Sequence record: PP886230 | Length of the DNA: 64,000 nucleotides | Source: Escherichia phage vB_EcoM_E9.1 | Strand: one strand, 5' to 3' | In this document: positions 3,124 through 18,705 of the stretch, piece after piece | Numbering within the stretch: the stretch's first letter is position 1 | How the letters are laid out: each line of letters begins with the position of its first letter | Notes under the pieces: generated by a model | The model's database searches: none | Seen by the model: the letters and a program-made list of their open reading frames with translations, nothing else | What the model was told of the DNA's origin: nothing | Position numbers and translations under genes: made by a program

Positions 3124-3205
3124 TATTGACTTATTTTGTCAGTACTGGCATAATGTATTCATTGGCAGATAAGCCGTAGCCCATAGGGTGCGGGAGTGTA
3201 TCTAT
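3124..3205 (+). repeat. promoter-containing repeat element (REP copy, variant): TTGACT promoter followed by conserved core cccatagggtgc
   Basis: Matches the elements at 9337, 11025, 13372, 16361 and 18622. Confidence 0.55.
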
Positions 3206-3344
3206 AGAAAAATTAGTTTAGTATAGTTACAATTGTGCACCCGGTGGGTTAGCTGTTGTCATGGGGTATATTATGCCAGTACTTGATAATGCTGTCAATA
3301 CTTTTTTTTACTATCCAGTACAGAAAACTATTTTTAAAAAGTAC

Positions 3345-3372
3345 TTGCAAACTATGTTTAAAGGCGTATAAT
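3345..3372 (+). promoter_or_regulatory. sigma70-type promoter driving a short non-coding transcript
   Basis: TTGCAA-N16-TATAAT; no ORF before the next promoter. Confidence 0.55.
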
Positions 3373-3377
3373 GTTTT

Positions 3378-3460
3378 ACATCAGGACGGGGGAACGAAAT
3401 AAGTAACTTCCCGTTAAGTAGCCCAGGAGTAAGGCACACGAAAAACTCCCCTGATAAAAT
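3378..3460 (+). ncRNA. candidate small RNA (copy 1), about 85 nt between two promoters
   Basis: Conserved sequence with compensatory-looking stems (acgggg..ccccgt, atcagga..tcccctgat); second copy at 13532-13612; no ORF. Confidence 0.35.
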
Positions 3461-3463
3461 AGT

Positions 3464-3491
3464 TTGACAAATGTTTTTAAAAGCGTATAAT
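3464..3491 (+). promoter_or_regulatory. sigma70-type promoter (TTGACA-N16-TATAAT)
   Basis: Consensus hexamers. Confidence 0.6.
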
Positions 3492-3523
3492 ACTTACATC
3501 AACTACTGAATGAGGGTTACAAA

Positions 3524-4135
3524 ATGAAAACTATCACTACTACTACTTTCGTTATGGATTTTTCTGAATTGAACGCAGAACAAAAAACGTCAGCTATCGA
3601 ACTGGTTCGGGAACGTGAAAAAAACTCAAACGACAATTATTTTTCTGAAAGTGAAATTGAATACTATAAAGAAACAGTACTACCGGAATATGGCATTAAT
3701 GACGCTGAAATACAATTCAGTGGCTTTTGGTCCCAGGGTGACGGTGCATCAATCAGTACTGACCACGTTGACGCAGTGAAGTTTTTACGCAAGGTAAGAG
3801 CATTAACTAAGTATCGCTCAATCCGTCACTTGCTGAATGAAGATGATTTGGCGATGAGTGTAAAGCGTTCGCACTCCCACTACTCGCATGAGAATACTGT
3901 AAGCGGGTACATTGAATCGGCTTACACTGATTTAACCGCAAAACAAGAAACGTTAGTTAATGAGCTTGAGGAACTACTCACTGATACTATTCGTGAATTG
4001 TCCCGCAAGTTGTACCGTGATTTAGAGAATGCATATGAGGATCAATTCACTACTGAAAACATTACGGCACTGATTGAGGGTAACGAGTATCAATTCAATG
4101 TTATTGATGGCGTAGTGGAATCAATCGAATATTAA
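3524..4135 (+). CDS. hypothetical acidic protein (203 aa)
   Basis: ORF with SD gagggt; acidic composition. Confidence 0.7.
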   Translation: MKTITTTTFVMDFSELNAEQKTSAIELVREREKNSNDNYFSESEIEYYKETVLPEYGINDAEIQFSGFWSQGDGASISTDHVDAVKFLRKVRALTKYRSIRHLLNEDDLAMSVKRSHSHYSHENTVSGYIESAYTDLTAKQETLVNELEELLTDTIRELSRKLYRDLENAYEDQFTTENITALIEGNEYQFNVIDGVVESIEY

Positions 4136-4227
4136 TTTAAAAAGTACTTGCAAACTAAGTTTAAAAGCGTATAATACTTTATATCGAGAGCGGGAATAGT
4201 TCCCGCTACTAATGAGGAATACTACAA

Positions 4228-4392
4228 ATGAATACTTTTACCTTCGCTCAATTGAACGCCCTGGATGTATTGTCTGATGCTTTGCGGGATGCAACTGAAA
4301 GCGGTTTATTTGACAATGTTGACATTCACCCTGATGTAATTAATAATTTTTGTGATGCTATCGCAGAAGTACTGGAAGATCTAAAAAAATAA
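4228..4392 (+). CDS. hypothetical small protein (54 aa)
   Basis: ORF below the track cutoff with promoter, hairpin and SD gagga upstream. Confidence 0.5.
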   Translation: MNTFTFAQLNALDVLSDALRDATESGLFDNVDIHPDVINNFCDAIAEVLEDLKK

Positions 4393-4480
4393 TAGAAAGT
4401 ACTTGCAATTAGTTTTTAGTACTGTATAATGTTTTACATAGAGGGGAGAAATGGTTCTCCCTGGTAATGAGGAAAATACA

Positions 4481-4702
4481 ATGGCTAATATCACTACTCT
4501 TTCCCAACTGGAAGCACTGGTTAAATCTATGCGGGAACATGCCGACAATATCGGCGTAAAAGATCCAGCCGTTTGCTTCTGCGACGAATTGAATGATGAT
4601 ACCCTGGTAATAGCAGAAGTCCAGGACGTTTCTAACTATTCCTCGCGTTACACTGGCGGCGTAGCAAATAAAGGTGACTTCTGTTTATACCTTACCAAAT
4701 AA
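4481..4702 (+). CDS. hypothetical early protein
   Basis: ATG after the leader hairpin; the track ORF from 4451 starts inside the hairpin. Confidence 0.65.
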   Translation: MANITTLSQLEALVKSMREHADNIGVKDPAVCFCDELNDDTLVIAEVQDVSNYSSRYTGGVANKGDFCLYLTK

Positions 4703-4705
4703 CAA

Positions 4706-4737
4706 CGCGGGGAGATAATAACTCCCCGTTACTTTTT
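4706..4737 (+). terminator. rho-independent terminator
   Basis: GC hairpin cgcggggag..ctccccg then T-run. Confidence 0.6.
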
Positions 4738-4945
4738 CAGTACTGAATCATTTAATAGACGGATCTCGGCACCCGGTGGGTTAGTGACTGTTTCGTCTTG
4801 ATGTAGTAATTATGCCAGTACTGGATGCACTTGTCAACAACTATTTTTCAAATACTTTTTATTAAAATACTTGCTAATAGTTTTTAAACGCGTATAATGT
4901 TTTGCATAGGGGGAGCGGTTCCCCTGGTAACTAAGGAATAATAAA

Positions 4946-5182
4946 ATGCTTGAACAAATCAAATCAACGTCTGCGAATGTAACGGGAACGGTTGTACACT
5001 TTACTAGTGATGAATCGCGGGGCGTTCCCTATTGTGCTGTACATGTAAACACTGATGGCAACTACTGGTTTACGGTTTACGGATCATATTCATTTGGACG
5101 ACCAGGGCATCAAAAAATTCTGGATAAAGTACAGCCAACGGGTAAAAATATCACGGCTGAAATGTTTTATAAAAAATCATAA
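4946..5182 (+). CDS. hypothetical early protein
   Basis: ORF 78 aa with promoter, hairpin and SD. Confidence 0.65.
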   Translation: MLEQIKSTSANVTGTVVHFTSDESRGVPYCAVHVNTDGNYWFTVYGSYSFGRPGHQKILDKVQPTGKNITAEMFYKKS

Positions 5183-5267
5183 AGTACTTGATAATAGTTT
5201 TTAGTACTGTATAATATTTTACATCGCAAGGGGGTAATGGTTCCCCCTGGTAACTAAGGATAATCAA

Positions 5268-5567
5268 ATGAAAGTTGCATTCATCGCCCTGGCTTTATCT
5301 GTTTCCTCTTTTGCTGTTAATGCGTCGTTAGATGTAAGTAGTGAAAAATTCATTCAGTGCACTGTAGCAATGACAGATGAAAGTACTGGCGAGATTGTAT
5401 TAAAGGATCTGGAGATTCAGCCGGAAGCATTTAAAAACGGCCCGTTCCATGAAGAAGACGAAAACGGTAGCACAACAATTTATTATGATGCCAGTACTAA
5501 ACGCGGGTCGGTCACTGTTATGGATACTGAGAAAGTAACTCATACTGGCGTTATTAATTGCCGTTGA
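5268..5567 (+). CDS. putative secreted protein with N-terminal signal peptide
   Basis: N-terminus MKVAFIALALSVSSFAVNA is hydrophobic with an AxA-type site. Confidence 0.65.
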   Translation: MKVAFIALALSVSSFAVNASLDVSSEKFIQCTVAMTDESTGEIVLKDLEIQPEAFKNGPFHEEDENGSTTIYYDASTKRGSVTVMDTEKVTHTGVINCR

Positions 5568-5588
5568 TAGATACTACGGGGTAACATC

Positions 5589-5819
5589 ATGACTAAGCGA
5601 ATTGTTTTACTTAACGAAAGCAGTACTACACAACTACTTAACGCCGTGCATTATGATATTGAAACGAGCGTTAATCTTATCAGTACTGTAGTACTGTTGG
5701 ACACTGGAAAGGTCGCCAATGATAAAGCGATTGCAGGTATACTAACGGATCTTGAGCCTGGTAGCAGTGCACCAATAACGTTAAATGGTAAAGTGTTTAA
5801 TATTTTACTCACTGATTAA
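5589..5819 (+). CDS. hypothetical protein
   Basis: ORF 76 aa immediately downstream, SD present. Confidence 0.6.
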   Translation: MTKRIVLLNESSTTQLLNAVHYDIETSVNLISTVVLLDTGKVANDKAIAGILTDLEPGSSAPITLNGKVFNILLTD

Positions 5820-5825
5820 GTACAT

Positions 5826-5850
5826 AGCCCACCTGGTGGGCTTTTTTGTT
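5826..5850 (+). terminator. rho-independent terminator
   Basis: Hairpin agcccacctggtgggct then TTTTTT. Confidence 0.7.
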
Positions 5851-6050
5851 TTTGTAGTATCGTAGTACTGAGATACTTTGAAAATAGTTTTAAAAAAGTA
5901 GTTGACATTACCGCAGAAAAGCGTAGAATGTATTACATCAAGACGGGGAGCACTAAGTAGACCGCCAGTAAGTCGAACGAAAAACTGGACACGTCGAGAA
6001 AACTTTGATACACTAATAAACGTAAACTAAACTTTAATTGAGGATTTATA

Positions 6051-6533
6051 ATGGCTAATGTAAAATCATTCATCAAAGCACTGGTAGCAAATGAAACTAA
6101 CGTCGCGGCTGAGATCCTGGCTGAACTGGATAACGATACCATGAAAGCGGTACGCAATAATTTTAACATCGCGTACAGTACTGCGAAAGAACTACAAGCA
6201 AATAAAGCGGCAGAAATTGAAGCGGCAAAGGCGGCCCGTGAAGCAGAACTACAAGCAACAATCGAAAGTATCCAGGCGGCGGTGTCTGGATTGGATCTGG
6301 AAGTGGTTGTGGAAATGGCACATAAAGCCCTGGCGGTTAAGTATGGTGAAGATAAGCCAGAATCTAAACCCAAAAAATGGATTCAGGAACGCGTAGCGGT
6401 AGTACTGGACAACGGGGAAGAATATCTGATTCCGGTGCGTGGTAACTGTATTGCGGTAGTACTGGACGCTATCAAAGAAAGCGGTATGACTCGCGAGGAA
6501 TGGATCGAAGCTCATCGCAAAGTTGAAGCATAA
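6051..6533 (+). CDS. hypothetical Ala/Lys-rich protein (160 aa)
   Basis: ORF with TTGACA promoter near 5903 and a long leader; SD gagga. Confidence 0.7.
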   Translation: MANVKSFIKALVANETNVAAEILAELDNDTMKAVRNNFNIAYSTAKELQANKAAEIEAAKAAREAELQATIESIQAAVSGLDLEVVVEMAHKALAVKYGEDKPESKPKKWIQERVAVVLDNGEEYLIPVRGNCIAVVLDAIKESGMTREEWIEAHRKVEA

Positions 6534-6554
6534 CAATTAAAGTACTGAATCACT

Positions 6555-6582
6555 AGCCCACTGTATAAGTGGGCTTTTTTGT
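6555..6582 (+). terminator. rho-independent terminator
   Basis: Hairpin agcccactgtataagtgggct then TTTTTT. Confidence 0.7.
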
Positions 6583-6817
6583 GTTTATCGTTTACCAGGC
6601 CACCAGCACCGCCTAGAAACGATTCTAACGCATTAAACGGATTATCTGATGCATTGCCCTAGCTGGTGGCGTTAAGGCTGTAAGAACGCGATTGAGAGCG
6701 TTTAAAGTATTTTGCAAAAAGTAATAAAAAGTACTTGAACGATTAAGAGATTAGCGTATAATGTTTTACATCGAGAGGGGGAAACGGTTCTCCTTCCAAA
6801 TCAAAGGAATCAAAACA

Positions 6818-7045
6818 ATGGCTATTATCATTACTCGCGTATCTGGTACTACTGGCAACGAACAAGTAGTTGCAGTCATTACGAACAAGGCAGGTGCGGA
6901 ATTGCAAAATGCAATGAATACCTGGGCCGTTAATGAGTTCGGTCAGTGGGCAAGTGTAGCATACATTGAAACCTATCAAGTGCCGTCGATTAGTTTAACT
7001 GATTTGGGCGTTGAGCGTATCCTTTGCCTTGATGAATTAAATTAA
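6818..7045 (+). CDS. hypothetical early protein
   Basis: ATG after promoter and hairpin; the track ORF from 6761 starts in the promoter. Confidence 0.65.
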   Translation: MAIIITRVSGTTGNEQVVAVITNKAGAELQNAMNTWAVNEFGQWASVAYIETYQVPSISLTDLGVERILCLDELN

Positions 7046-7130
7046 AAAAGTACTTGCAAAGTAAATCGAATAAAGTATAATACATTACATCAAGGGGAGA
7101 AATGGTTCTCCCCACTACAAGGAAACTAAA

Positions 7131-7343
7131 ATGGCTATCATTACTAAAATCAAAGTTAGTAAATCACTGGTTAAACTTGAAGAAGTGAAAGAAGGTTATA
7201 AAGTATCTTGGTGCGGTATGTATCGGACGTTCGCAGATATAGATGATGCGATCAATTATTACACTGACACGGTTAAAAACTTTGTTCGTGCTGATGTGGT
7301 TATGGCAGTGGCAACATATAAAGCATCAAAAGAAAGTAAGTAA
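7131..7343 (+). CDS. hypothetical early protein, paralogue of 10287-10466
   Basis: N-terminus MAIITKIKV resembles MAIIAKTEI. Confidence 0.65.
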   Translation: MAIITKIKVSKSLVKLEEVKEGYKVSWCGMYRTFADIDDAINYYTDTVKNFVRADVVMAVATYKASKESK

Positions 7344-7424
7344 AAATATTATCACAGTACTATTGACATAGTTTGATAGTACTGGCATAATAACTTTTAT
7401 CAAGACAACTAAGAGGAAATTAAA

Positions 7425-7769
7425 ATGGCTAACATCAATACTATAGCAGCACAAAATATCAACCTGTCTTCTGTTGAAGTTGTACATATTGCCGCTCGGC
7501 GTTGGTTCCAGGCTTCATATGGTAACACTTATTTCTCTTTAAGTGTAGACGTAGAAATTGATGGTAATTTTATTGAAGTAGTAAACGTGCCGTTCCAATA
7601 TGGATACGGGGATCATTTTGACACTGTAGCAATGGAAGAATTTAGCAAGGTTATTAATATGGAAGGTAAAGAGTTTTTACGCGGTTCTTATCTTTCCCGT
7701 TTTTGCCGTGATAATAATATCACTGTTTATAGTTCTGTTAGTGATGTTAAACGCAAAAAAGATCTTTAA
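7425..7769 (+). CDS. hypothetical early protein, paralogue of 14309-14632
   Basis: Shared GNTY, YGYG and C-terminal DVKRKKD. Confidence 0.7.
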   Translation: MANINTIAAQNINLSSVEVVHIAARRWFQASYGNTYFSLSVDVEIDGNFIEVVNVPFQYGYGDHFDTVAMEEFSKVINMEGKEFLRGSYLSRFCRDNNITVYSSVSDVKRKKDL

Positions 7770-7849
7770 TTAGCTTTACTTTATGCAGATACTTTGATAT
7801 AGTGTCTGCATAGGGGAAAGAAATTAAATTAACTTAAGAGGATAGTATA

Positions 7850-8119
7850 ATGAAAAATATCAGTACTTTAATCGATGCAGGTACTCATGTTCGTCGGTCT
7901 ATGGTTGCAACCAGTACTACAAAACAAGTAGCGAGCGGTTATCTTGTATTTGTGCACGATGGTAAACTCCTGGAACGTTCAATCAATTTTGATGTTAAAA
8001 ACAATTGCCGTTTTATTATCTTTAAGCGTGAGCAATATAAAATTGATTTACCAGCAAAGCCCATTAGTGGGGCGTACAACGTGCAATCATTGTTTGAACG
8101 TCAACCATACACCTATTAA
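7850..8119 (+). CDS. hypothetical protein
   Basis: ORF 89 aa, SD aagagga. Confidence 0.6.
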   Translation: MKNISTLIDAGTHVRRSMVATSTTKQVASGYLVFVHDGKLLERSINFDVKNNCRFIIFKREQYKIDLPAKPISGAYNVQSLFERQPYTY

Positions 8120-8170
8120 TCAAAACATCGTTAGCGGTCGATTCAGGCCGCTTATATTGGGGATTATACC

Positions 8171-8443
8171 ATGAACGTTAATCAAGTACTGAATGAGATC
8201 GAAAGCATCATTAAACCGATGAAGCGTACTGATGCTATGTTAACACCGGAAGAATGCCGCCTTTATGAGCGTTACAGCGTCGAACAAGTCCAGGCAATGG
8301 CTATGGCTACCCCAGCCGTTAAACCGCCTGAGAATGCGTTACAGGACGTTACAGGGGATTATATCATCAATCCAGTACTAGGGAAGATGGCTGCAATCAC
8401 CGAAGATCAACAAGACTACTTAAGCCAGTACTTAAAAGGTTAA
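8171..8443 (+). CDS. hypothetical protein
   Basis: ORF 90 aa. Confidence 0.6.
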   Translation: MNVNQVLNEIESIIKPMKRTDAMLTPEECRLYERYSVEQVQAMAMATPAVKPPENALQDVTGDYIINPVLGKMAAITEDQQDYLSQYLKG

Positions 8444-8448
8444 TTAAT

Positions 8449-8658
8449 ATGCTTACTGTACAGGATAAGATCGACATCTTAAAGGTTAATATGTATGTGA
8501 TTGATGCAGAACCTGGTAAAGTATTTGCATACGATGATAGTACTGTAAGCGATTTCTACTATAGCCAGGCCGTGGGGGATCTTTCTGTACAGTCGGTTAT
8601 TGAAAACGTAGTTAATGCAGCGTATGAGCATTTACTTTCAAATAGTACTTGCAATTAG
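8449..8658 (+). CDS. hypothetical protein
   Basis: ORF 69 aa, closely follows previous gene. Confidence 0.55.
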   Translation: MLTVQDKIDILKVNMYVIDAEPGKVFAYDDSTVSDFYYSQAVGDLSVQSVIENVVNAAYEHLLSNSTCN

Positions 8659-8728
8659 TTTTTAAACGCGTATAATGTTTTACATCGAGAGCGGGAATAG
8701 TTCCCGCCTCACTTTTAAGGAATATGAA

Positions 8729-8875
8729 ATGAAAGCATCAAAAAAGAGTACTAACAAGAAAGCACGTTCAACCTTAGATGGGGTATTCCCTTTACGTTTC
8801 GTTGATGAAGTGGTTTCCTACCCGCCTGGCCTTACTCCTGAGATGGTAGAAAGTTTGCGTAAATCTAAAAAATAG
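8729..8875 (+). CDS. hypothetical small basic protein (48 aa)
   Basis: In-frame ATG with SD taagga 8 nt upstream; the track ORF from 8675 begins in the promoter. Confidence 0.55.
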   Translation: MKASKKSTNKKARSTLDGVFPLRFVDEVVSYPPGLTPEMVESLRKSKK

Positions 8876-8956
8876 TACTTGCAATTAGTTTTTAGTACTG
8901 TATAATGTTTTACATGAAGGGGAGAAATGATTCTCCCCAATAACAGGAGAAACAAA

Positions 8957-9109
8957 ATGAAACAATACAACGCTCGGTTTGATGTTACTATCGGTAACGG
9001 CAAAGGTCAATTCTCTTTCAGTACTCGCCGCAGTTATACAGAAAACTTCCTGCGTAATTGTGCATTGACCGCCGCTCAAATTAAACATTATTTTCAGGCT
9101 AAAAAATGA
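8957..9109 (+). CDS. hypothetical small protein (50 aa)
   Basis: ATG after SD aggaga; promoter and hairpin upstream. Confidence 0.55.
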   Translation: MKQYNARFDVTIGNGKGQFSFSTRRSYTENFLRNCALTAAQIKHYFQAKK

Positions 9110-9195
9110 GATCATTAGCTTATTACAGTTCGGCCCTGGTCGGTGCATTGATCGCGGCGTTGTTAGTAACCTATCTATTCTTTATGGTGATTTAA
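9106..9195 (+). CDS. putative single-pass membrane peptide (29 aa)
   Basis: ATGA overlap with upstream stop; hydrophobic sequence. Confidence 0.35.
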   Translation: MRSLAYYSSALVGALIAALLVTYLFFMVI

Positions 9196-9333
9196 ATGAA
9201 TCCTAACGGTATAATTTACAGTACTCCTAAAACGAAAGCAGACAAGGTAAACGCTAAAAAAGCGAAAGTAAAGGAGTACATCAAACAAGGAATGACACGA
9301 AAGGCGGCGATTCTAAAAGCTAAAAATAAATGA
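9196..9333 (+). CDS. hypothetical small Lys-rich protein (45 aa)
   Basis: ATG directly after previous stop (TAAATG). Confidence 0.35.
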   Translation: MNPNGIIYSTPKTKADKVNAKKAKVKEYIKQGMTRKAAILKAKNK

Positions 9334-9336
9334 AAA

Positions 9337-9432
9337 AGTGGTTGACTTCGGTCAGCCATTTTGCTATTATATATTCATTGAGAGATAGCTCACTAGCCCA
9401 CAGGGTGCAGGAGTGTATCTATTGTATAATGT
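9337..9432 (+). repeat. promoter-containing repeat element (REP copy)
   Basis: ttgacttcggtcag..ctattatat then ..ctagcccacagggtgcaggagtgtatc. Confidence 0.6.
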
Positions 9433-9553
9433 TTGAGTACTGAAAACTATTTTAAAGTATTTGATAAAAAGTACTTGCAAACTATCTCAATAAGCGTATA
9501 ATGTTTTACATCGCAAGGGGAAACGGTTTCCCCTAGTAATAAGGAAACGAATC

Positions 9554-12021: not shown

Positions 12022-12099
12022 TACTTGCATTTAGTTTTCAGTACTGTTATAGTACTTGCATCAAGGGGAAACATCTTCCCCTACTAAGAGGAAATAAAA

Positions 12100-12288
12100 A
12101 TGGAAAACTTATCAAGTATTTTAGTACAAGATGATTTCGGTAATCCTGGAAGTGCTATCATTGTTCGGGGTAATAAAGCAACGTTTGTTATTGCTGGTGG
12201 ACCAGTACAGCGTAGCATTAAAAATAATGCTGTTACCATTAATAATGTACGCTATCGCTTAGATAAAGAATTGATTCATAAACTGTAA
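12100..12288 (+). CDS. hypothetical protein
   Basis: ORF 62 aa with promoter and hairpin. Confidence 0.6.
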   Translation: MENLSSILVQDDFGNPGSAIIVRGNKATFVIAGGPVQRSIKNNAVTINNVRYRLDKELIHKL

Positions 12289-12315
12289 TATTAATTTAAT
12301 AGAGGATAACAATAA

Positions 12316-12639
12316 ATGTACATTCATACTACTATCACAAAGGAAGTCCGTTGCCAGTTCGAAAGTATTCCGGGCGTATGTTTCATCACTGGTACGTTTT
12401 CCCCTGGTGATCGTGATAATCCAGTACTGTTACAATTACGCCATCCATCATGGGATAAAGCATTTGATCTACCGTTGAATGAATTCGCAACTACTGCTGA
12501 AAAGTACATTAAAAATATTCGCGAGAATGATCGACTATTCATTAATGCTTTTAGTGATTCCGCGTTAAGCGAGATCCACGGCGTATTGGTTGCAATCATG
12601 GAATCAATGCAGAAAACTAAATTCAAACAAGGTGAATAA
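12316..12639 (+). CDS. hypothetical protein
   Basis: ORF 107 aa; SD gagga. Confidence 0.65.
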   Translation: MYIHTTITKEVRCQFESIPGVCFITGTFSPGDRDNPVLLQLRHPSWDKAFDLPLNEFATTAEKYIKNIRENDRLFINAFSDSALSEIHGVLVAIMESMQKTKFKQGE

Positions 12640-12722
12640 AAACTATTGACAATGCAACCCAGTACTGTATAATAGTTTACATGAAGGGGAGAAATGATTC
12701 TCCCCACTGAGAGGAAAGAAAA

Positions 12723-12935
12723 ATGCAAGGTCAACTAATCGTTCGTAAATGGTCTGATACTAACGAAAAACCGTGGGATGTACAATACATCGGACCGGAT
12801 GGGGTATCACGTTATCAGCCTGGCGTAACGCATAGTACTGAGCAATATGCCGCCGCTCACCGCGAACGCCTGTTAGAATCCATGAAACAGGGATTCTGTG
12901 AAAAATTCATTCAAGATCATTGGCTGAAAGATTAA
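12723..12935 (+). CDS. hypothetical protein
   Basis: ORF 70 aa with promoter and hairpin. Confidence 0.65.
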   Translation: MQGQLIVRKWSDTNEKPWDVQYIGPDGVSRYQPGVTHSTEQYAAAHRERLLESMKQGFCEKFIQDHWLKD

Positions 12936-12952
12936 TAGAAGGAGTACAGCTT

Positions 12953-13045
12953 ATGCAAATGAATCCGATGATTATTGTTTTAGCTGTACTTATGATCATT
13001 CATGCAATTGTAGAAGTATTAACGCAATCAGGAGTAATAAAATGA
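12953..13045 (+). CDS. putative small membrane peptide (30 aa)
   Basis: SD aaggagt; hydrophobic; first of three overlapping micro-ORFs. Confidence 0.4.
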   Translation: MQMNPMIIVLAVLMIIHAIVEVLTQSGVIK

Positions 13046-13215
13046 TTCAAGTAGAATTATCAGTACTGAAAGATCTGTTTTATCGGTTAGGTACTACTGG
13101 AGAGTATCCTAAAAGTGATACCGCAAAACTTTTTGTATCACTCGACTTATGGCAACGCGAACAATTAGTAATGTCCTGGCGTAAAGGTAAAGCAGATCGC
13201 GAGGTGAAAGCATGA
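13042..13215 (+). CDS. hypothetical small protein (57 aa)
   Basis: ATGA overlap with upstream stop. Confidence 0.4.
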   Translation: MIQVELSVLKDLFYRLGTTGEYPKSDTAKLFVSLDLWQREQLVMSWRKGKADREVKA

Positions 13216-13361
13216 AAGAATTCTTATTCGAAGTAGTGTTTCAAGGTGTCGGTAGTAACCAACTGATTCGCTCAAGTGGTTACAATGTTAACCAGGCATG
13301 GAATAACATTAAACAAATGTACCCGAACGCTATCACCTATCGCAACCCGAAAGAAGTTTAA
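13212..13361 (+). CDS. hypothetical small protein (49 aa)
   Basis: ATGA overlap with upstream stop. Confidence 0.4.
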   Translation: MKEFLFEVVFQGVGSNQLIRSSGYNVNQAWNNIKQMYPNAITYRNPKEV

Positions 13362-13371
13362 AAATATTTGA

Positions 13372-13452
13372 AAAAGGGATTGACTCCGGTCAGTCCCTTT
13401 GCTATTATATACGCATAGAAACAATTCAGCCCACCGGGTGCATAAATGTATC
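13372..13452 (+). repeat. promoter-containing repeat element (REP copy)
   Basis: gggattgactccggtcagtccc..ctattatat then ..cagcccaccgggtgcataaatgtatc; Chi GCTGGTGG at 13451-13458. Confidence 0.6.
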
Positions 13453-13531
13453 TATTATATGCTGGTGGCTAGTACTGAAAACTATTTTTAAAAAGTACTT
13501 GCATTGTATTTAGAATCAAGTATAATGTTTT

Positions 13532-13612
13532 ACATCAGGACGGGGAACGAAACAAGTAACCCCGTTAAGTAGTCCAGGAGTAAGACATACGAAAACCTCC
13601 CCTGATAAAATA
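13532..13612 (+). ncRNA. candidate small RNA (copy 2)
   Basis: Near-identical to 3378-3460; substitutions look compatible with the proposed stems; sits between two promoters. Confidence 0.35.
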
Positions 13613-13674
13613 GTTTGACAATAGAAATTAAACGAGTATAATACTTACATCAACCACTGATAAGGAAACATAAA

Positions 13675-13950
13675 ATGCGGATTCTACTGACAGCTAACGA
13701 AATCGAACAAGTACTGACTACTAACCTGGAAGACTGGAAACGTGAAGCAGATATCCAGGCGGTTCAATGGTTAAATGATAAGTTAACGCCGGATGACTTA
13801 AGCAAGATTGTAGATCCTCAATTCTACGAAGATATCCACGACACCGCGTTAAGCGTCGAGGATGTACTAGATAAGCACTTTATTGATACTGATTTGCAGG
13901 TTTACGGTCGTAAAAACTTTATCACTATTCACGACATTTACAATAATTAA
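13675..13950 (+). CDS. hypothetical protein
   Basis: ORF 91 aa. Confidence 0.65.
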   Translation: MRILLTANEIEQVLTTNLEDWKREADIQAVQWLNDKLTPDDLSKIVDPQFYEDIHDTALSVEDVLDKHFIDTDLQVYGRKNFITIHDIYNN

Positions 13951-14037
13951 GTATTGACAAAGTATCTTAGTACTGTATAATAGTTTACATCAAGCGAGGG
14001 GAATGGTTCCCCTCCTAACTAAAAGAGAGAAATAAAA

Positions 14038-14220
14038 ATGGCTAAGTGCACTATCTGCAAGAAAGAAATAGTATTAGTTCCAAGTGCCCGTGAACGTGCC
14101 GCTCGGTTCGGTGGCAAAGCGTCAGACTATACAAAAATGTTTACTACCCATACAGCTTGCCAGGTAGCAAAACGTTCACAAGAAAGCGTAGAATTAATGC
14201 GTAAACTTTCCAAAAAATAA
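14038..14220 (+). CDS. hypothetical basic protein
   Basis: ORF 60 aa with promoter and hairpin. Confidence 0.6.
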   Translation: MAKCTICKKEIVLVPSARERAARFGGKASDYTKMFTTHTACQVAKRSQESVELMRKLSKK

Positions 14221-14308
14221 GTATTGACAAAGTATCTTAGTACTGTATAATAGTTTACATCAAGTGAGGGGAAACGGTTCCCCTCCTAACAAAGAGAGAG
14301 AAATAAAA

Positions 14309-14632
14309 ATGGCTATGATCCTTGCCCAGAAAGTAGAATTGAAAATTGTAACCTCCTTTGACATTAACGTTAATCGGTGGACTGATTCACACGGCAATAC
14401 TTACCACTCTTGCTACGTGTCTGCGTTAATTGGCGACCGCTGGGAAGACCTGGGACACGAAACCTTTACATACGGTTACGGTACACAAGGCGAATACACG
14501 GGCTTGGAGATCATTAAAGAAACCGTTATAGGTTTCAACCCGAAAGAAAAAGTTATTCACCGCATCGAGGAAGAGATCAACAAAGAAATAACAGTTCGCT
14601 ACCACGATGTAAAACGTAAGAAAGACATGTAA
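14309..14632 (+). CDS. hypothetical protein, paralogue of 7425-7769
   Basis: ATG after leader hairpin; shared DVKRKKD C-terminus. Confidence 0.7.
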   Translation: MAMILAQKVELKIVTSFDINVNRWTDSHGNTYHSCYVSALIGDRWEDLGHETFTYGYGTQGEYTGLEIIKETVIGFNPKEKVIHRIEEEINKEITVRYHDVKRKKDM

Positions 14633-14727
14633 TAGAATCCATTTAAAGTACTATTTGACATTGCCCAGATAGTACTTTATAATAGACTCTAACTTGTAGT
14701 ACTAACTTAACTAATAGGATGTATACC

Positions 14728-15123
14728 ATGATTACTAAATTCTACGCTACCCGTGAAGCTGCCCGTATTGTTGCACGCGAGGAAGGCGAAACATTTAAAG
14801 ACATGGGCAAAGATGCACCGAAAGGTCAACGCTGGGCCGTACAGTTCAAAGAGATCTCTGATATTGTGAATTCACCGGAGCCAGTACTAACAGCAGCAGA
14901 ACTAAAACGAGCGGATTTACTGGCGTCAATACTTGATGCACAAGATGAGTTTATCGCTGATTCTGATATCAAAGTACAGACAAACCACACCGCTTGGACT
15001 CACGCGGATCACCTGGCAAACCTTAAGCGTCCAAGTGAACTGATTCGCAACCAGAAAGAGATCCGACACGACCGTAAGGGTAATCGTGTAACAGTATACA
15101 GTAAACGCCGCCAGGTTATCTAA
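14728..15123 (+). CDS. hypothetical protein, paralogue of 2511-2777
   Basis: SD agga 8 nt upstream of ATG 14728; shared FKDMG and DRKGNRVTVY. Confidence 0.7.
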   Translation: MITKFYATREAARIVAREEGETFKDMGKDAPKGQRWAVQFKEISDIVNSPEPVLTAAELKRADLLASILDAQDEFIADSDIKVQTNHTAWTHADHLANLKRPSELIRNQKEIRHDRKGNRVTVYSKRRQVI

Positions 15124-15145
15124 TAACTTGCAGTACTAACAACAC

Positions 15146-15171
15146 GGCGGGATCAGTTCCCGCCTTTTTTA
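15146..15171 (+). terminator. rho-independent terminator
   Basis: Hairpin ggcgggatcagttcccgcc then TTTTTT. Confidence 0.7.
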
Positions 15172-15184
15172 TAGGACAAACAAA

Positions 15185-15439
15185 ATGATTAAGGTTCAAC
15201 TATATAAAGATAACATCTTACGGGTACACTATAAAGCACCTCAGAGAATCATCACAAAGGCCGTACAGCTTGCTAATGAGTTTATTAATGGTAACCTATT
15301 ACCAAGGAAGTTAAGCAACGGGAAACTGCGTGTAATCGATGTGGACACTAACAACAGAATAGTAATAGAGAACACAGGAAAAATAAACCTATATGAACAC
15401 CAACAATATAATAAGAAAATAAAACTAATATCACGTTGA
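15185..15439 (+). CDS. hypothetical protein
   Basis: ORF 84 aa. Confidence 0.55.
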   Translation: MIKVQLYKDNILRVHYKAPQRIITKAVQLANEFINGNLLPRKLSNGKLRVIDVDTNNRIVIENTGKINLYEHQQYNKKIKLISR

Positions 15440-15492
15440 CAGTACTCAAATGTTTTAGTACTATATGTACATACCAACACGGGGGAAACAAA

Positions 15493-15735
15493 ATGATTAC
15501 TTTAGAAAAACGTATCAAAGAAACTACATCGCTGGTGGAACTGTTAACAGTACTCAAATGTAAAACAACACCATTCAGCACGCCGGACTTTATTAATATG
15601 GTTGATGTTAATGGTCGCTATCGTATCACGGTCGAACAAGGAGCGGCGAAAGTATTCAGTACTAAAAACACGAAGGAAGTGATCCACGCCGTTAATGTTA
15701 AAAAAGTAGTTGCCATTGATAGTAAAGTACTGTAA
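15493..15735 (+). CDS. hypothetical protein
   Basis: ATG after gggggaaacaaa; the track ORF starts upstream at 15436. Confidence 0.55.
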   Translation: MITLEKRIKETTSLVELLTVLKCKTTPFSTPDFINMVDVNGRYRITVEQGAAKVFSTKNTKEVIHAVNVKKVVAIDSKVL

Positions 15736-15766
15736 GATAGTTACATTAACTCAAGGAGAACATGCA

Positions 15767-16351
15767 ATGCGTAATTATACTAAATTCATCCGTACACTGT
15801 CAGAAATGGAAACCAACAAAGAGATCCTTTCAGCTTGTCGGTTAGCTGGCCTGGAGATCATCGGTGCTGGTTCTTCCCGTATAGTATTCGCTTTAAATGA
15901 TCGGTTAGTGATTAAGGTCGCGAATTGTGATGCGGGTGTAGAACAAAATGAAACTGAATGTAAGGTATGGAATTTTTTAGACTATGACCGCCCTCAGTTG
16001 AAACAGTACTTTGCAAAGGTGCATATGCATTTATGCGATCCTGATAATATGTTTATCGTTATGGATCGGTTGAGTACTGCAAGCAAAGGCAGCGTAAAGC
16101 ACGTTAACGCGTGCAACGAATTAAAGTATAATATTAAACGTAATGCCATTGAACGCCAGCACCGCTTTGCTGATGCACTACAACACGTTGATGATACATT
16201 ATCAACACTAACGATAAGAGATATCAGAAAACAGAATATCGGCCAGGATCGTAATGGACTTATTAAAGTACTTGATTACGGTTTAACCCGCAATATCTGG
16301 AATCAGTACTATAAAAAGCGTGATGTAGAAGCAAGTAAGGTAACACGATAA
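15767..16351 (+). CDS. minimal protein-kinase-like protein (putative Ser/Thr kinase)
   Basis: Gly-rich loop IGAGSSRIVF, VIKV lysine, IRDIRKQNIG resembling HRDLKPENI, and DYG in place of DFG; SD aaggaga 6 nt upstream. Confidence 0.55.
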   Translation: MRNYTKFIRTLSEMETNKEILSACRLAGLEIIGAGSSRIVFALNDRLVIKVANCDAGVEQNETECKVWNFLDYDRPQLKQYFAKVHMHLCDPDNMFIVMDRLSTASKGSVKHVNACNELKYNIKRNAIERQHRFADALQHVDDTLSTLTIRDIRKQNIGQDRNGLIKVLDYGLTRNIWNQYYKKRDVEASKVTR

Positions 16352-16360
16352 AAAAAGATT

Positions 16361-16465
16361 AAAAAAGGGATTGACTCCGGTCAGTCCCTTTGCTATTATA
16401 TATTCATTGAGAGATAACTCACTGACCCATAGGGTGCGGAAGTGTATCTATTATATAAGTATTCA
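16361..16465 (+). repeat. promoter-containing repeat element (REP copy)
   Basis: gggattgactccggtcagtccc..ctattatat then ..cactgacccatagggtgcggaagtgtatc. Confidence 0.6.
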
Positions 16466-16573
16466 GTACTGAAAACTATTTTTAAAAAGTACTTGCATTG
16501 TACTTAGAATCAAGTATAATGTTTTATATCGAGAGGGGAAATGGTTCTCCCTCAAAGAACAAGGAATAAAATC

Positions 16574-16795
16574 ATGACTACAATGACTTGCATTCACGCT
16601 TCAAACCTGCTTAATGATGCGGCCTTTAATGTTGAAACAGAATATCAATGTTATCGGGATGAAAATAAAAAAGTTTTTGTAGTTGATAATAATGGTTTCC
16701 ATATTGAATTGCAATCCGGCTTCACTGGCGTTGATGGTAAATCAGTATGGGGCGTACAGGATGATAAAGGCACATATCATTTTAAACGTAATTAA
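16574..16795 (+). CDS. hypothetical protein
   Basis: ATG after SD aaggaat; the track ORF from 16541 starts in the leader hairpin. Confidence 0.65.
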   Translation: MTTMTCIHASNLLNDAAFNVETEYQCYRDENKKVFVVDNNGFHIELQSGFTGVDGKSVWGVQDDKGTYHFKRN

Positions 16796-16881
16796 GTATT
16801 GACAAAGTATATCAGTACTGTATAATAGTTTACATCAAGGGGAGAATAGTTCTCCCCACACCAATAAAAGGAAACATAATT

Positions 16882-17154
16882 ATGTCTAGCTACTCCGCTA
16901 CTATGATCATTAAAGATATGAACGGTAATCCTACTTCTGCTGGTGGATCATTTGGAAACATTAATTTAGATGGTCGGTTATCCATGCAATCAGCAATCGA
17001 TGCAGCGAAAGAAGTTTTTAAGAATGAATGTACTGTTAGTAAGCTGGATTATATGGGATTTGCTATCGAAAAAACTAATCGTTTTGTGGACTACAAAAAA
17101 CCACTGATGATTGATACTAACCTGAAAGCAAACGAAGTGGAGTACTTATTATGA
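16882..17154 (+). CDS. hypothetical protein
   Basis: ORF 90 aa with promoter and hairpin. Confidence 0.65.
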   Translation: MSSYSATMIIKDMNGNPTSAGGSFGNINLDGRLSMQSAIDAAKEVFKNECTVSKLDYMGFAIEKTNRFVDYKKPLMIDTNLKANEVEYLL

Positions 17155-17342
17155 CAGTTGAAGAAGTAAAAAAAGTACTGGCAGTACTACGCTATCATAA
17201 TCATTGTAAGGTGAAGAATGATCCTGATTATCTTGATTCATCCCTGGAAGAGGATACACTACAAGCAATAAGCCATATGCAAAAAATGCTTAAGCGTATG
17301 ACCGAAAAGAACAGGCCAGACTATATCGGAAATAAAATTTAA
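17151..17342 (+). CDS. hypothetical protein
   Basis: ORF 63 aa, ATGA overlap. Confidence 0.55.
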   Translation: MTVEEVKKVLAVLRYHNHCKVKNDPDYLDSSLEEDTLQAISHMQKMLKRMTEKNRPDYIGNKI

Positions 17343-17428
17343 AAAGTACTTGCATTGTAGTTAGATTAACGTATAATGTTTTACATAGAGCGGGGGAATA
17401 GTTCTCCCGCCAGTCCAGGAGATACACC

Positions 17429-17692
17429 ATGAACACTATCGAAATCACTATCAATGCACACGTATACGACAACGTAGTACTGCAAACTACTATGACCGCT
17501 AATGATACCAGTACTTTGCGGAATACTGTTATTAGTGCCGTATGTGCCGCTATCGGTGATGTCGCCCTGGAAAATGCAAAACACGTAAACGATGGTTTCA
17601 CTATGTGCAAACGTGATAACGCAAAACATATCATCGTGGAAGGTTACGGCGGTGTAGAATTTAATGTTTATATGAAAAAAGTACTTGCATAA
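17429..17692 (+). CDS. hypothetical protein
   Basis: ORF 87 aa with promoter, hairpin and SD. Confidence 0.65.
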   Translation: MNTIEITINAHVYDNVVLQTTMTANDTSTLRNTVISAVCAAIGDVALENAKHVNDGFTMCKRDNAKHIIVEGYGGVEFNVYMKKVLA

Positions 17693-17759
17693 TAACTAAA
17701 ACAAAGTATAATGTTTTGCATAGGGGGAGATATCCTCCCCCACTAAAAGGAGTACTAAA

Positions 17760-17984
17760 ATGGCTAACTTTGATGAACTGATGCGGGAAGTAGCTAACCT
17801 GGCAGAAGAGAAGAAATCATTCGATTCTATCTATAACACCGCTCATCGTGATTCAGTACTGGCATGTAACCAGGATCAAAAAGATGAACTAATCGCCACC
17901 TATCATGAAGCATGGAAGTACTACCGACAATGGGAGAAAGAAGAAAGCGAGTCTACCATCAACGGCATCAATAATCTAATCTAA
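17760..17984 (+). CDS. hypothetical protein
   Basis: ORF 74 aa with promoter and hairpin. Confidence 0.65.
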   Translation: MANFDELMREVANLAEEKKSFDSIYNTAHRDSVLACNQDQKDELIATYHEAWKYYRQWEKEESESTINGINNLI

Positions 17985-18060
17985 AAGTTTTATTTCAGTA
18001 CTATTGACATAGCTTGATAGTACTGATGTAATAACTTTACTAACTACAAGGGGAAACATA

Positions 18061-18318
18061 ATGGAACAGTTCACACAATATCGGGTAAATCCTCAAGCTA
18101 TGGCCTACGTAGAAGACCATAAAACGTTACCAGTACTGCAACCAGTTAAAGGCCATATCTATCGTGCAATGTCGTGGTGTGCGGCCCAGGATGGCTATAA
18201 AACCGTAGCCGTGGGTATGTACTGCGGTAATGGTGAATGGTTTGATCCAAATAATCCGGTAGCCATTGACAGTACTGAAAAAATGAAATGGGCCGACTAC
18301 ATCGAAGATATTTCATAA
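18061..18318 (+). CDS. hypothetical protein
   Basis: ORF 85 aa. Confidence 0.65.
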   Translation: MEQFTQYRVNPQAMAYVEDHKTLPVLQPVKGHIYRAMSWCAAQDGYKTVAVGMYCGNGEWFDPNNPVAIDSTEKMKWADYIEDIS

Positions 18319-18408
18319 AAACTATTTGACAGTACTAACCAGTAATGTATAATGTTTTACATAGAGCGGGGGAATAGTTCTCCCGCCAATAGTTTGGAGT
18401 TAAACATT

Positions 18409-18609
18409 ATGTCTATCGCTATCTCCCTGGTTGAAGTACTGAAAGAAGCTAAAGCCAACCAGATCGACGTAAAGATCCAGGAACTACAAAACGGCTTAAT
18501 CGGCTGTACTTGTACCGCTGGTGGAGCGGCAGACTATCGAGAACACGAATCACTCGAATCACTGGTTCGGTATCTTTCCATGATCGTTGATGATTGGAGA
18601 ATCATCTAA
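18409..18609 (+). CDS. hypothetical protein
   Basis: ATG after the hairpin; the track ORF from 18352 starts in the promoter. Confidence 0.6.
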   Translation: MSIAISLVEVLKEAKANQIDVKIQELQNGLIGCTCTAGGAADYREHESLESLVRYLSMIVDDWRII

Positions 18610-18621
18610 CAAAAAAGAATA

Positions 18622-18705
18622 AAAAAGGGATTGACTCCGGTCAGTCCCTTTGCTATTATATACGCATAGACAAAAACTAGCCCACAGGGTGCATAGGTGT
18701 ATCCA
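18622..18705 (+). repeat. promoter-containing repeat element (REP copy)
   Basis: gggattgactccggtcagtccc..ctattatat then ..ctagcccacagggtgcataggtgtatc; Chi at 18739-18746 just downstream. Confidence 0.6.

Follow-up and report, generated by a model that had tools for sequence, protein, structure and literature searches.

Lambda nut, the rrn leader and HK022 put are promoter-proximal RNA modules, each formed by a hairpin and an invariant short sequence, and small-RNA families such as Qrr and OmrA/B exist in several copies that share one conserved block. T4-type phages carry PeSL, which are repeated intergenic cassettes of promoter and stem-loop (Arbiol et al. 2010, PMC2839356; Comeau et al. 2014, PMC4122927). 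Rak2-like phages encode a sigma factor and have a T4-like replisome (PMC5259590), and no expression data on any of them were found in the literature searched. The window, the whole 64,000-nucleotide stretch of Escherichia phage vB_EcoM_E9.1 (PP886230) analysed here, is from an Asteriusvirus (PBECO4/121Q-like) jumbo coliphage, and its first ~20 kb, which lie within the direct terminal repeat, form the early region. A sequence scan places many terminators in this region. The window has 25 regular early promoters, which are PeSL-like too, and no tRNA or tmRNA genes were found in it with ARAGORN.

Between the early genes lies a real multicopy unit, predicted to comprise a strong host-type promoter and a conserved, folded non-coding RNA of ~50 nt (Table 1); the ORFs on either side are small, and most have no match in Pfam. 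Exact copies of its core, CCCAYNGGGTGC, occur at 3180, 9397, 11074, 13430, 16426 and 18681 on the plus strand and at 1082, 3237 and 4769 on the minus strand, 9 in total against 0.00 expected from 100 dinucleotide shuffles; shuffle statistics, here and below, overstate independence given the common descent of the copies. An nhmmer profile and a covariance model each recover 10 full copies, all within 1065–18709, and none in the 21–64 kb part of the window, bearing out the repeated core of the original prediction. The three reverse-complement cores had been thought to stand alone; instead, each has its own minus-strand promoter, and a fourth minus-strand copy, with a degenerate core at 1298–1310, joins them. 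That copy is faced by a decayed eleventh one at the same 68-nt spacing as in the 3180/3248 pair.

Table 1. Units of the repeat family and neighbouring elements in the window; promoters, starts and terminators are predicted.
Feature	Position	Strand	Promoter	Predicted start	RNA module	Covariance model (bits)	Remarks
Promoter after unit 1	1024–996	−					second minus-strand promoter
Unit 1	1065–1150	−	TTGCTT-17-TATAAT, ~1150–1122	A1115	1114–1065; hairpin AGUC-GAGAAA-GACU; core 1093–1082	45.9	
Decayed copy	1184–1267	+	TTGCTA-18-TACTAT		CUGCUAGGGUGC, 1241–1252; 5′ half of mini-hairpin lost	no match at E ≤ 1	weak nhmmer match, 1246–1267
Unit 2	1281–1365	−	TTGACT-16-TATAAT, 1365–1338	A1331	hairpin CGC-GAGAAA-GCG; degenerate core CCCCAGGGGGUGG, 1310–1298	21 (E 0.008)	convergent with decayed copy, canonical 68-nt spacing
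Unit 3	3126–3208	+	TTGACT-17-CATAAT, 3126–3154	A3161	hairpin UGGC-AGAUAA-GCCG, 3163–3176; core 3180–3191; tail ends 3208	49.8	convergent with unit 4, core-to-core 68 nt
Unit 4, short form	3220–3298	−	TTGACA-17-CATAAT, 3298–3270	3262	core 3248–3237	30.8	convergent with unit 3
Bidirectional intrinsic terminator	4707–4729	both					ends gene 4451–4702 (+); would also stop unit 5 RNA at ~105 nt
Unit 5	4752–4837	−	TTGACA-17-CATAAT, 4837–4809	~4802	hairpin GAC-GAAACA-GUC; core 4780–4769	36	antisense to local genes
Unit 6	9335–9425	+	TTGACT-17-TATTAT, 9342–9370	A9377	hairpin UGAG-AGAUAG-CUCA; core 9397–9408	58.9	terminator hairpin 9335–9362 embedding −35
Regular early promoter after unit 6	9475–9502						
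Unit 7	11017–11102	+	TTGACA-17-CATAAT, 11017–11045	A11052	hairpin GACG-AGAA-CGUC; core 11074–11085	38.2	
Promoter after unit 7	11133–11160						
Unit 8, short form	13373–13458	+	13380–13408	A13415	core 13430–13441	38.8	terminator hairpin 13373–13400 embedding −35
Chi site near unit 8	13461–13468						
Unit 9	16364–16454	+	16371–16399	A16406	hairpin UGAG-AGAUAA-CUCA; core 16426–16437	66.7 (best match)	terminator hairpin 16364–16391
Unit 10, short form	18624–18709	+	18631–18659	A18666	weak stem UAG-ACAAAAA-CUA; core 18681–18692	40.4	terminator hairpin 18624–18651
Chi site near unit 10	18739–18746						

All plus-strand copies carry a sigma70-like promoter, with the −10 element ending 21–28 nt upstream of the core, as originally proposed, and the core is always accompanied by an upstream promoter among the 76 copies examined. 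A strict sigma70 test is passed by 69 of the 76, the remainder having a weak −35, and the promoters were also recovered by an independent scan. The spacer is 17 nt in 56 of these 69 promoters, an extended TGn is present in 46 and CA at the +1 position in 57. The conserved block starts at the predicted transcription start, and the promoter class is described by TTGACW, a 17-nt spacer, a TGn-extended −10 (TATTAT or CATAAT) and a conserved CAT whose A is the predicted start. The inverted-repeat promoter gggaTTGACTccggtcagtccc-TATTAT, initially ascribed to all six plus-strand copies, is present in units 6, 8, 9 and 10, whereas units 3 and 7 carry ordinary TTGACW-17-CATAAT promoters; the hairpin is absent in six of the ten units. 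With its 12-bp stem, UCCG or UUCG loop and T-rich tail, it is, as a predicted structure, the intrinsic terminator of the upstream gene with the −35 embedded in it, and the same hairpin is annotated as a terminator in phages G17 (ARNold, for the unit 8 hairpin) and Munch.

The RNA module begins with 2–4 unpaired bases, followed by a hairpin with a freely varying but paired stem (33 variants) and a purine-rich loop (GAGAAA, AGAUAA, AGAACAA or GCGAAA). A short linker connects this hairpin to a near-invariant mini-hairpin, R-CCC-N3/4-GGG-U, then GC, and the 3′ end is a conserved tail of five purines, U and SYRUCYAU, which folding leaves unpaired. The module contains no conserved ORF. In helix 1, all 4 pairs show both-sided changes and 93% of cells are paired, and covariation reaches 0.424, as opposed to 0.140 in shuffles (0 of 500 reach 0.424) and 0.015–0.063 with slid partners, in a covariance-model alignment that is itself fitted to the structure. 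An ungapped subset, chosen for having a stem, gives the same covariation result. Stems of at least 4 bp occur in 59% of copies versus 20% of shuffles, and the 21 nt upstream of the core have a mean folding z-score of −1.64. In the mini-hairpin, 39 copies have A-U and 36 have G·U as the flanking pair, CCC/GGG has changed to CCU/AGG twice and a loop of 3 or 4 nt is tolerated. Overall, G·U pairs number 48 versus 2 A·C, which points to selection at the level of the transcribed-strand RNA. A transcribed RNA product of the module is thus well supported at the level of sequence.

The G·U excess and the A-U/G·U alternation are RNA signatures and argue against the idea that the DNA itself is selected, with the core as an operator or upstream element of a second promoter, or the cassette as a PeSL-type recombination module that would shuffle early genes; we regard this as very unlikely. 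The idea draws on the palindromic CCC-N3-GGG and on a −10-like hexamer (T 70%, A 83%, T 71%, W, R, T 53%) that lies 11 nt past the core, and hence 17 nt downstream of CCCAYA, so that a promoter CCCAYA-N17-TATWRT could be served by the sigma factor of these phages or by an activator. The recombination version is modelled on PeSL, which are recombining, repeated promoter/terminator composites. However, symmetric CCU/AGG and 3-to-4-nt loop changes are ill-suited to a fixed protein site or promoter spacing, and the core was never found outside the early region, in relatives or in the window. As for mobility, the copies of CBB and GAP32 are syntenic yet their hairpin stems are very different, which indicates that the copies are old and stable and not recently mobile.

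Three contexts are seen: a copy may run into a terminator, face a twin across the constant 68-nt spacing, or precede a regular early promoter. A second promoter just downstream, which the original prediction gave to every copy, is present for units 1, 2 and 6–10 but not for the convergent units 3 and 4 or for unit 5, which meets a terminator. Overall, the copies form 12 convergent pairs, and about one-third of all copies oppose the local gene direction, heading into a terminator or facing a twin. Antisense copies consist of their own promoter, the conserved 5′ part, an A/U-rich spacer and an intrinsic terminator with a U tail, 34–40 nt past the core; sense copies have tandem promoters. A terminator follows 1 of the 10 copies in the window (4707–4729) and roughly 10–18 of the 76 overall. 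The genes downstream are unrelated to each other, and over 120 nt separate the promoter from the nearest start codon, with the non-coding module and then a terminator, twin or promoter in between. The proposed short transcript of ~50 nt gains support, as an RNA product, from the promoter position, the covariation and the G·U excess, but its length corresponds to the conserved module; the transcript is probably longer, ~105 nt before a terminator and, where a promoter follows, extending into the next gene.

Seven of the ten window copies have no terminator and would read in sense into a gene, and could therefore be cis-acting leaders instead of free RNAs. Like lambda nut, the rrn leader or HK022 put, such a leader would modify the polymerase transcribing it, its hairpin and invariant motif acting either unaided or together with a phage factor or a Nus-type factor of the host, perhaps where a hairpin stabilises a pause, and the polymerase would pass the abundant terminators of the early region. 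The module always lies 2–4 nt beyond the predicted start site of a promoter class of its own, and its variable-stem hairpin, conserved purine loop and cross-host invariant sequence resemble boxB and boxA in layout. The elemental pause consensus is G-10/Y-1/G+1, a spacing matched by core G8-G9 and tail U6 followed by G; tail position 6 is U in 92% of copies, but the next base, the supposed +1, is G in 58% and C in 30%. In the third of copies that run against genes, read-through would yield antisense RNA only, the boxA consensus (CGCUCUUA-like) is not seen in the alignment and 20 early ORFs yielded no N-, Q- or NusG-like protein; we consider this reading unlikely. The same contexts weigh against a primer role, in which a purine-rich RNA would stay hybridised downstream as an R-loop and prime early replication, as R-loop transcripts do at T4 oriF and oriG. 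The order of promoter, G/purine-rich RNA and A+T-rich DNA suits such a primer, as does the T4-like replisome, but with 10–16 copies per terminal repeat, convergent pairs just 110 bp apart, where forks would collide, and the covariation of the 5′ hairpin left unexplained, its probability is minimal.

The covariance model detects 79 copies in Rak2-like relatives, in at least five genera, in line with the expectation that the core would recur in other phage genomes. The core is present in Asteriusvirus, RaK2, CBB, GAP32, Munch, BF, fHe-Yen9-04 and three uncultured contigs; identity to 121Q is 96.4% in the RNA part, compared with 91.3% overall. No copy was found in E. coli genomes. Rfam 15 gives no match at gathering scores over the whole window and none to the units at E ≤ 5 over 900–19500, searches with single copies returned noise only, and the literature searched holds no published description, so the RNA family appears to be undescribed.

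Base-pairing sibling small RNAs, with the core or tail as a seed for host or phage mRNA and probably with Hfq, would have a precedent in the multicopy families, and the antisense copies show the classic small-RNA layout, with the tail unpaired. However, the best-conserved block folds into a hairpin that shows compensatory changes and loops of differing length and offers no open seed, and tail positions 7–9 switch among GUA, CCG and CUA. Except for the units' own antisense strands, the 64-kb window contains no complementary sites, and, in a search that covered the phage's early mRNA leaders, the RNAs pair with these no better than shuffled RNAs do. This explanation appears quite unlikely.

We favour, with about an even chance, the explanation that the copies are small transcription units whose purpose is the RNA itself: an early small RNA made in abundance, or a 5′ RNA tag, which would present a protein-binding hairpin. 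From the observed repeat family, promoters, covarying structure, strand asymmetry, cross-genus conservation and three contexts, we infer transcription, the RNA ends, action in trans and a protein partner. A dedicated class of host sigma70 promoter would drive each module, four of these promoters being merged with the hairpin that would terminate the upstream gene, and the location of the units in the terminal repeat would place them among the earliest DNA to be transcribed, with 10 promoters in each repeat. Antisense read-through would be blocked by a terminator or a facing twin, and with sense read-through a longer early transcript would begin with the module; convergent pairs, terminators of antisense copies and tandem promoters of sense copies all fit an RNA product. 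The RNAs of convergent twins would be complementary and could cancel each other. Protein binding is plausible: in the most likely mode of action, the invariant hairpin and tail would bind a protein conserved across Enterobacterales hosts or these phages, which abundant early RNA would titrate or recruit. Pfam identifies no RNA-binding domain in the 20 early ORFs.

The units share a variable stem and a purine-rich loop with nut, rrn and put, which work solely on the RNA strand, as the units would. Their loops, mostly 6–7 nt, differ from the GNRA-like pentaloop of boxB, and there are 10–16 copies rather than two, many facing terminators or each other. As with Qrr1–5, OmrA/B, CsrB/RsmY and 6S RNA, several genes would yield short RNAs with one conserved block, and many strong promoters would provide the high dosage of sibling or sponge RNAs; unlike these, the units match no Rfam family by sequence or model and reside in the terminal repeat of a lytic jumbo phage, mostly without a terminator of their own. 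Compared with Hfq-dependent small RNAs, a promoter is present in all units, but terminators are few and neither a single-stranded seed nor complementary sites in the window or early leaders accompany it. RNA anti-CRISPRs (solitary repeat units) are likewise phage-borne, promoter-driven short hairpin RNAs in several copies, proposed to be decoys; the core is not known to resemble the type I-E or I-F CRISPR repeats of the hosts. PeSL are similarly repeated and intergenic, between small early ORFans, with a strong sigma70-like promoter and A+T-rich upstream region, seen here in all 10 units, and a promoter-overlapping, G+C-rich stem-loop at which transcription from upstream ends, predicted here for units 6, 8, 9 and 10. 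A PeSL extends at its 3′ end to the Shine–Dalgarno sequence and the start codon of the following gene and has no conserved transcribed motif, whereas the units here do not meet that gene, would drive a conserved structured non-coding module, lie in both orientations and in convergent pairs, and usually have a second promoter before the next gene. The promoter/terminator composite is thus already known from T4-type phages, and the new part is the transcribed module.

The repeat is real and larger than first reported: each unit joins a sigma70-type promoter to an RNA module of about 50 nt. Nine matches to its core, CCCAYNGGGTGC, lie in the window, where dinucleotide-preserving shuffles predict 0.00. 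A profile derived from these copies detects ten full-length members, and a covariance model recognises the same ten and none in the 21–64 kb stretch. The six plus-strand copies named in the original prediction are correct, and the reverse-strand cores at 1082, 3237 and 4769, described there as standing alone, are complete units, each with its own promoter. A fourth minus-strand copy has a degenerate core, and a decayed eleventh copy faces it. The inverted repeats proposed to flank the promoter are found in four copies and are absent from the rest, and the proposed location just upstream of another promoter holds for the sense copies listed in the table but not for 4780(−), which meets a terminator, or for the convergent 3180/3248.

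Coordinates of the repeat units and neighbouring features in the window, and of Fur-box-like sites in relatives (L-numbers denote sequences of relatives).
Feature	Position	Remark
Sense copies, rightward	9397, 11074, 13430, 16426, 18681	no terminator
Sense copies, leftward	1310, 1093	no terminator
Convergent pair	3180/3248	68 nt core to core
Convergent pair with decayed copy	1241/1309	68 nt core to core
Antisense copy	4780(−)	terminator 4707–4729
Minus-strand copy	1298–1310	degenerate core
Decayed eleventh copy	1184–1267	faces copy at 1310
Predicted terminator hairpin embedding −35	9335–9362, 13373–13400, 16364–16391, 18624–18651	UNCG-type loop
Regular early promoters	359–19243	25; e.g. 4396–4452, 8872–8928
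Leftward promoters at left end	1365–1338, about 1150–1122, 1024–996	
Chi sites	578–18746, plus 57809	12
Back-to-back Chi pair	578–597	
Chi just 3′ of elements	13461, 18739	
DksA/TraR C4 zinc-finger ORF	11344–11598	
GNAT acetyltransferase ORF	11665–12018	
Weak protein-kinase-like ORF	15767–16348	
Short ORF across an element	9330–9443	
Fur-box-like site, L006 (Munch)	about 7430–7455, about 1040–1060	
Fur-box-like site, L003 (RaK2)	about 5500–5520	
Fur-box-like site, L008	about 1290–1310	
Fur-box-like site, L009	about 340–360	
Fur-box-like site, L017	about 6095–6115	

We gathered 76 copies by nhmmer and 79 by covariance model from the window, the jumbo phages RaK2, CBB, GAP32 and Munch, Serratia phage BF, Yersinia phage fHe-Yen9-04 and three uncultured viral contigs. 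Starting from the predicted 5′ end, 2–4 free bases precede hairpin 1, which has a stem of 3–5 bp and a purine-rich loop of 6–8 nt (GAGAAA in 14 copies, AGAUAA in 10, AGAACAA in 8 and GCGAAA in 7). A linker of 1–5 nt, often CUAA or UUAG, leads to a mini-hairpin, R-CCC-N3/4-GGG-U, followed by GC and by a conserved tail of about 15 nt: five purines, U (92%), S, Y, R, U, C (89%), Y, A and U.

The alignment and folding of copies proposed with the original prediction recover a covarying hairpin 1 and the conserved mini-hairpin. Hairpin 1 has 33 different stem sequences. In an ungapped alignment of 20 sequences, a subset chosen for having the stem, both sides change in all four pairs (42 cells), with a covariation score of 0.716, where shuffles give 0.189. 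The model-guided alignment of 79 copies is itself fitted to the structure; in it, 93% of hairpin 1 cells pair, double changes occur in 125 cells and the score is 0.424 against 0.140 (reached by none of 500 shuffles), with 0.015–0.063 in slid controls; the common ancestry of the copies tempers these statistics. Stems of at least 4 bp form in 59% of copies, compared with 20% of shuffled sequences, and the 21 nt 5′ of the core have a mean folding z-score of −1.64. Within the mini-hairpin, the flanking pair is A-U in 39 copies and G·U in 36, CCC/GGG becomes CCU/AGG in two, and the loop has 3 or 4 nt. Across all pairs, 48 are G·U and 2 are A·C, an asymmetry indicating that selection on the structure acts through the transcribed-strand RNA rather than through duplex DNA or the opposite strand. 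A −10-like hexamer 11 nt past the core suggests a DNA-level role, which is contradicted by this RNA-type covariation and appears quite improbable.

Further structure was sought and rejected. Pairing the 5′ end with the conserved tail to close the module gives −3.99 kcal/mol for own pairs and −3.86 for cross pairs (permutation p = 0.24), and a third hairpin in the tail would place A, found at position 4 in 58% of copies, opposite the 89%-conserved C. Stable folding does not extend beyond hairpin 1, with mean z-scores of just −0.8 and −0.65 once core and tail are added. Short ORFs across the elements lack conservation from copy to copy, and a coding role is rejected.

The four alignable RNA modules are 96.4% identical to those of phage 121Q, against 91.3% overall. 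The core search proposed earlier finds the core in Rak2-like relatives, refuting its absence from related genomes: in an exact-pattern scan of 2.9 million viral contigs, it occurs only in Rak2-like genomes of 345–378 kb and three uncultured relatives, clustered in one or two short loci per genome. Rfam at gathering and permissive thresholds and ARAGORN assign the module to no known RNA family. A host origin is also rejected, as 5,426 E. coli genomes hold no similar DNA and the one match among 185,579 species genomes (GTDB), to a contig of a Sulfurovum MAG, is a chance pattern match that fails against the covariance model. The motif is unmentioned in the CBB, phAPEC6 and fEgEco12 papers and in literature string searches for the core, and a literature search found no transcriptome study of Rak2-like phages. 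The transcribed half of the element, a multicopy structured RNA with deep conservation, appears to be undescribed.

A 5-kb probe from the surrounding region matches 50 phage records at 80–98% identity, all jumbo myoviruses of about 350 kb in the genus Asteriusvirus and relatives (PBECO4, 121Q, G17, fEgEco12 and others), and, wherever record ends were determined according to the annotations, the matching DNA lies within the direct terminal repeat. This repeat is 20,993 bp in fEgEco12 (PMC13070987), whose position 9043 aligns with window position 9000; we infer from this alignment that the window begins near the physical left end and that roughly 1–21 kb is terminal repeat. This stretch is a typical host-take-over early region, dense with short ORFs, each with a strong promoter. 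Its composition is clearly unlike the rest of the genome, with 37–42% G+C against about 31% further right, and the fall at about 20000–26000 lies near the inferred end of the repeat. Among 20 early ORFs searched against Pfam, the sole matches were to a DksA/TraR zinc finger, a GNAT acetyltransferase and DUF7247, plus a weak one to a kinase; the DksA/TraR, GNAT and kinase-like ORFs are candidate host-take-over functions. Positions 1–1700 carry no convincing plus-strand gene, but leftward promoters directed at the physical end of the DNA, two Chi sites back to back and many AGTACT sites. The window has 12 copies of the E. coli Chi sequence, GCTGGTGG, where 0.41 would be expected; 11 of these sites fall inside the terminal-repeat region, nine on the plus strand. 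This excess suggests that the linear genome ends are shielded from RecBCD. The palindrome AGTACT is likewise in excess (133 against 6.8 expected in 1–21 kb; 117 against 14.4 in 21–64 kb), often paired about 20 bp apart within regular early promoters (AAAGTACTTGCA ... AGTACTGTATAAT) and found 20–25 nt past the core in many elements, and may be a protein-binding or modification motif.

The copies occur in three genomic contexts. Twelve convergent pairs are found among the 76 copies; seven of them, from three genera, have cores exactly 68 nt apart, and in the others the spacing is 70–88 nt. Copies antisense to local genes have a bidirectional intrinsic terminator 34–40 nt past the core, giving a predicted RNA of about 95–105 nt. 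Sense copies have no terminator and are followed 40–80 nt later by a regular early promoter and then a gene; the genes downstream of copies are unrelated to each other, which excludes a leader of a paralogous gene family. The wider convergent pairs of relatives (79–88 nt) are centred on a Fur-box-like palindrome matching 15–17 of 19 positions of GATAATGATAATCATTATC, a sequence likeness that hints at iron or Fur control in some genera; the window, unlike these relatives, has no Fur box with at least 15 of 19 matches.

The simplest account of the three contexts is that the RNA module itself is the product: read-through that would be antisense would be stopped by a terminator or a facing twin, and harmless read-through would be left unstopped. 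A cis-acting nut-/put-like leader or pause module, the main rival, is consistent with the module's constant placement behind its dedicated promoter and with the layout of hairpin plus invariant sequence, but is awkward for the one-third of copies that face terminators or each other, and we consider it unlikely. Priming of replication origins fits neither the copy number nor the convergent pairs and is very improbable.

The mini-hairpin stem and tail are invariant across phages of Escherichia, Klebsiella, Salmonella, Cronobacter, Pectobacterium, Serratia and Yersinia. Together with the tolerance of the loop, the high copy number and the near-consensus promoters, this invariance points to a putative protein-binding platform, which would be abundant right after infection and could act as a decoy or recruitment tag. 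Taken as a whole, this reading of the module as product and platform is evenly poised between right and wrong; within it, selection on a structured RNA seems much safer and protein binding in trans weaker. More tentatively, the units could be an RNA weapon or switch. As an immediate-early decoy, the invariant hairpin and tail would titrate a conserved host RNA chaperone, ribonuclease, ribosome-associated factor or defence sensor; as a factor-recruiting, nut-like 5′ tag with many entry points, they would earmark the transcripts of a single promoter class for read-through and, through the antisense copies, set when immediate-early genes are switched off. A base-pairing small RNA is disfavoured and rather improbable, as the conserved block is a hairpin and the phage shows no targets: within the window the core is complementary only to the elements' own antisense strands, and early mRNA leaders show no better pairing than shuffled RNAs do. 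Pairing of the tail with the 16S rRNA 3′ end reaches −8 kcal/mol or lower in 36% of copies against 8% of shuffles, but this pairing is bimodal and four of the ten window copies lack it altogether, so that a universal Shine–Dalgarno mimic is rejected. Likenesses to the RyhB terminator, 5S rRNA, a CsrA SELEX site, the T7 class II pause, a DnaA box and the GAAA-receptor motif hold for a subset of the copies or break down at key positions, and all were dropped.

Rak2-like jumbo phages of about 350 kb are considered for phage therapy, and nearly all genes of their early regions are of unknown function. The deeply conserved multicopy structured RNA identified here, with its promoter class, predicted starts and covariance model, opens a testable route to understanding cell take-over by these phages, and is a candidate new RNA family in phages whose only annotated non-coding RNAs are tRNAs. 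Should this RNA prove to bind a host factor, it would serve that factor as a natural, high-affinity ligand; should it modify RNA polymerase, it would amount to a new antitermination system; and the decoy or tag form, if true, would add a new RNA-based layer of host take-over common to all Rak2-like jumbo phages.

The element promoters are a class separate from the ordinary early promoters. They have a 17-nt rather than 16-nt spacer, a TGn-extended −10 (TATTAT, CATAAT or TATACT) and a start at the A of a conserved CAT; of the 76 copies, which come from ten genomes and contigs, 69 pass a stringent sigma70 test, with the 17-nt spacer in 56 and the TG extension in 46 of these 69. The 25 regular early promoters (family D1), found before nearly every early ORF, consist of an A-tract, TTGCAA/TTGACA, a 16-nt spacer, TATAAT and a CAT start, directly followed by a G+C-rich 5′ hairpin (GCGGGAAnnnTTCCCGC) and then a Shine–Dalgarno sequence. 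In four element copies, AAAGGGATTGAC-TCCG-GTCAGTCCCTTT-GCTATTAT forms a 12-bp hairpin whose loop is of UNCG type and whose tail is T-rich. The annotation of phage G17 lists an identical hairpin as an ARNold terminator, that of phage Munch lists it as a terminator, and relatives show compensatory stem changes (GGGG/CCCC, GGCC/GGCC, GTAC/GTAC) that keep the internal TTGAC; together these observations point to a predicted terminator of the upstream gene. The overlap is extremely compact, with the −35 hexamer in the 5′ arm and the spacer and −10 drawn from the U-tract; these composites would be very compact natural insulating parts. The promoter half of the elements is thus an already known kind of cassette: composite promoter/terminator cassettes, termed promoter-early stem-loops (PeSLs), have been described for T4-type phages (PMC2839356, PMC4122927), of which Rak2-like phages are distant relatives (PMC5259590). 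The family D1 promoters are also PeSL-like, and the four composites resemble PeSLs in fusing a promoter with a predicted terminator.
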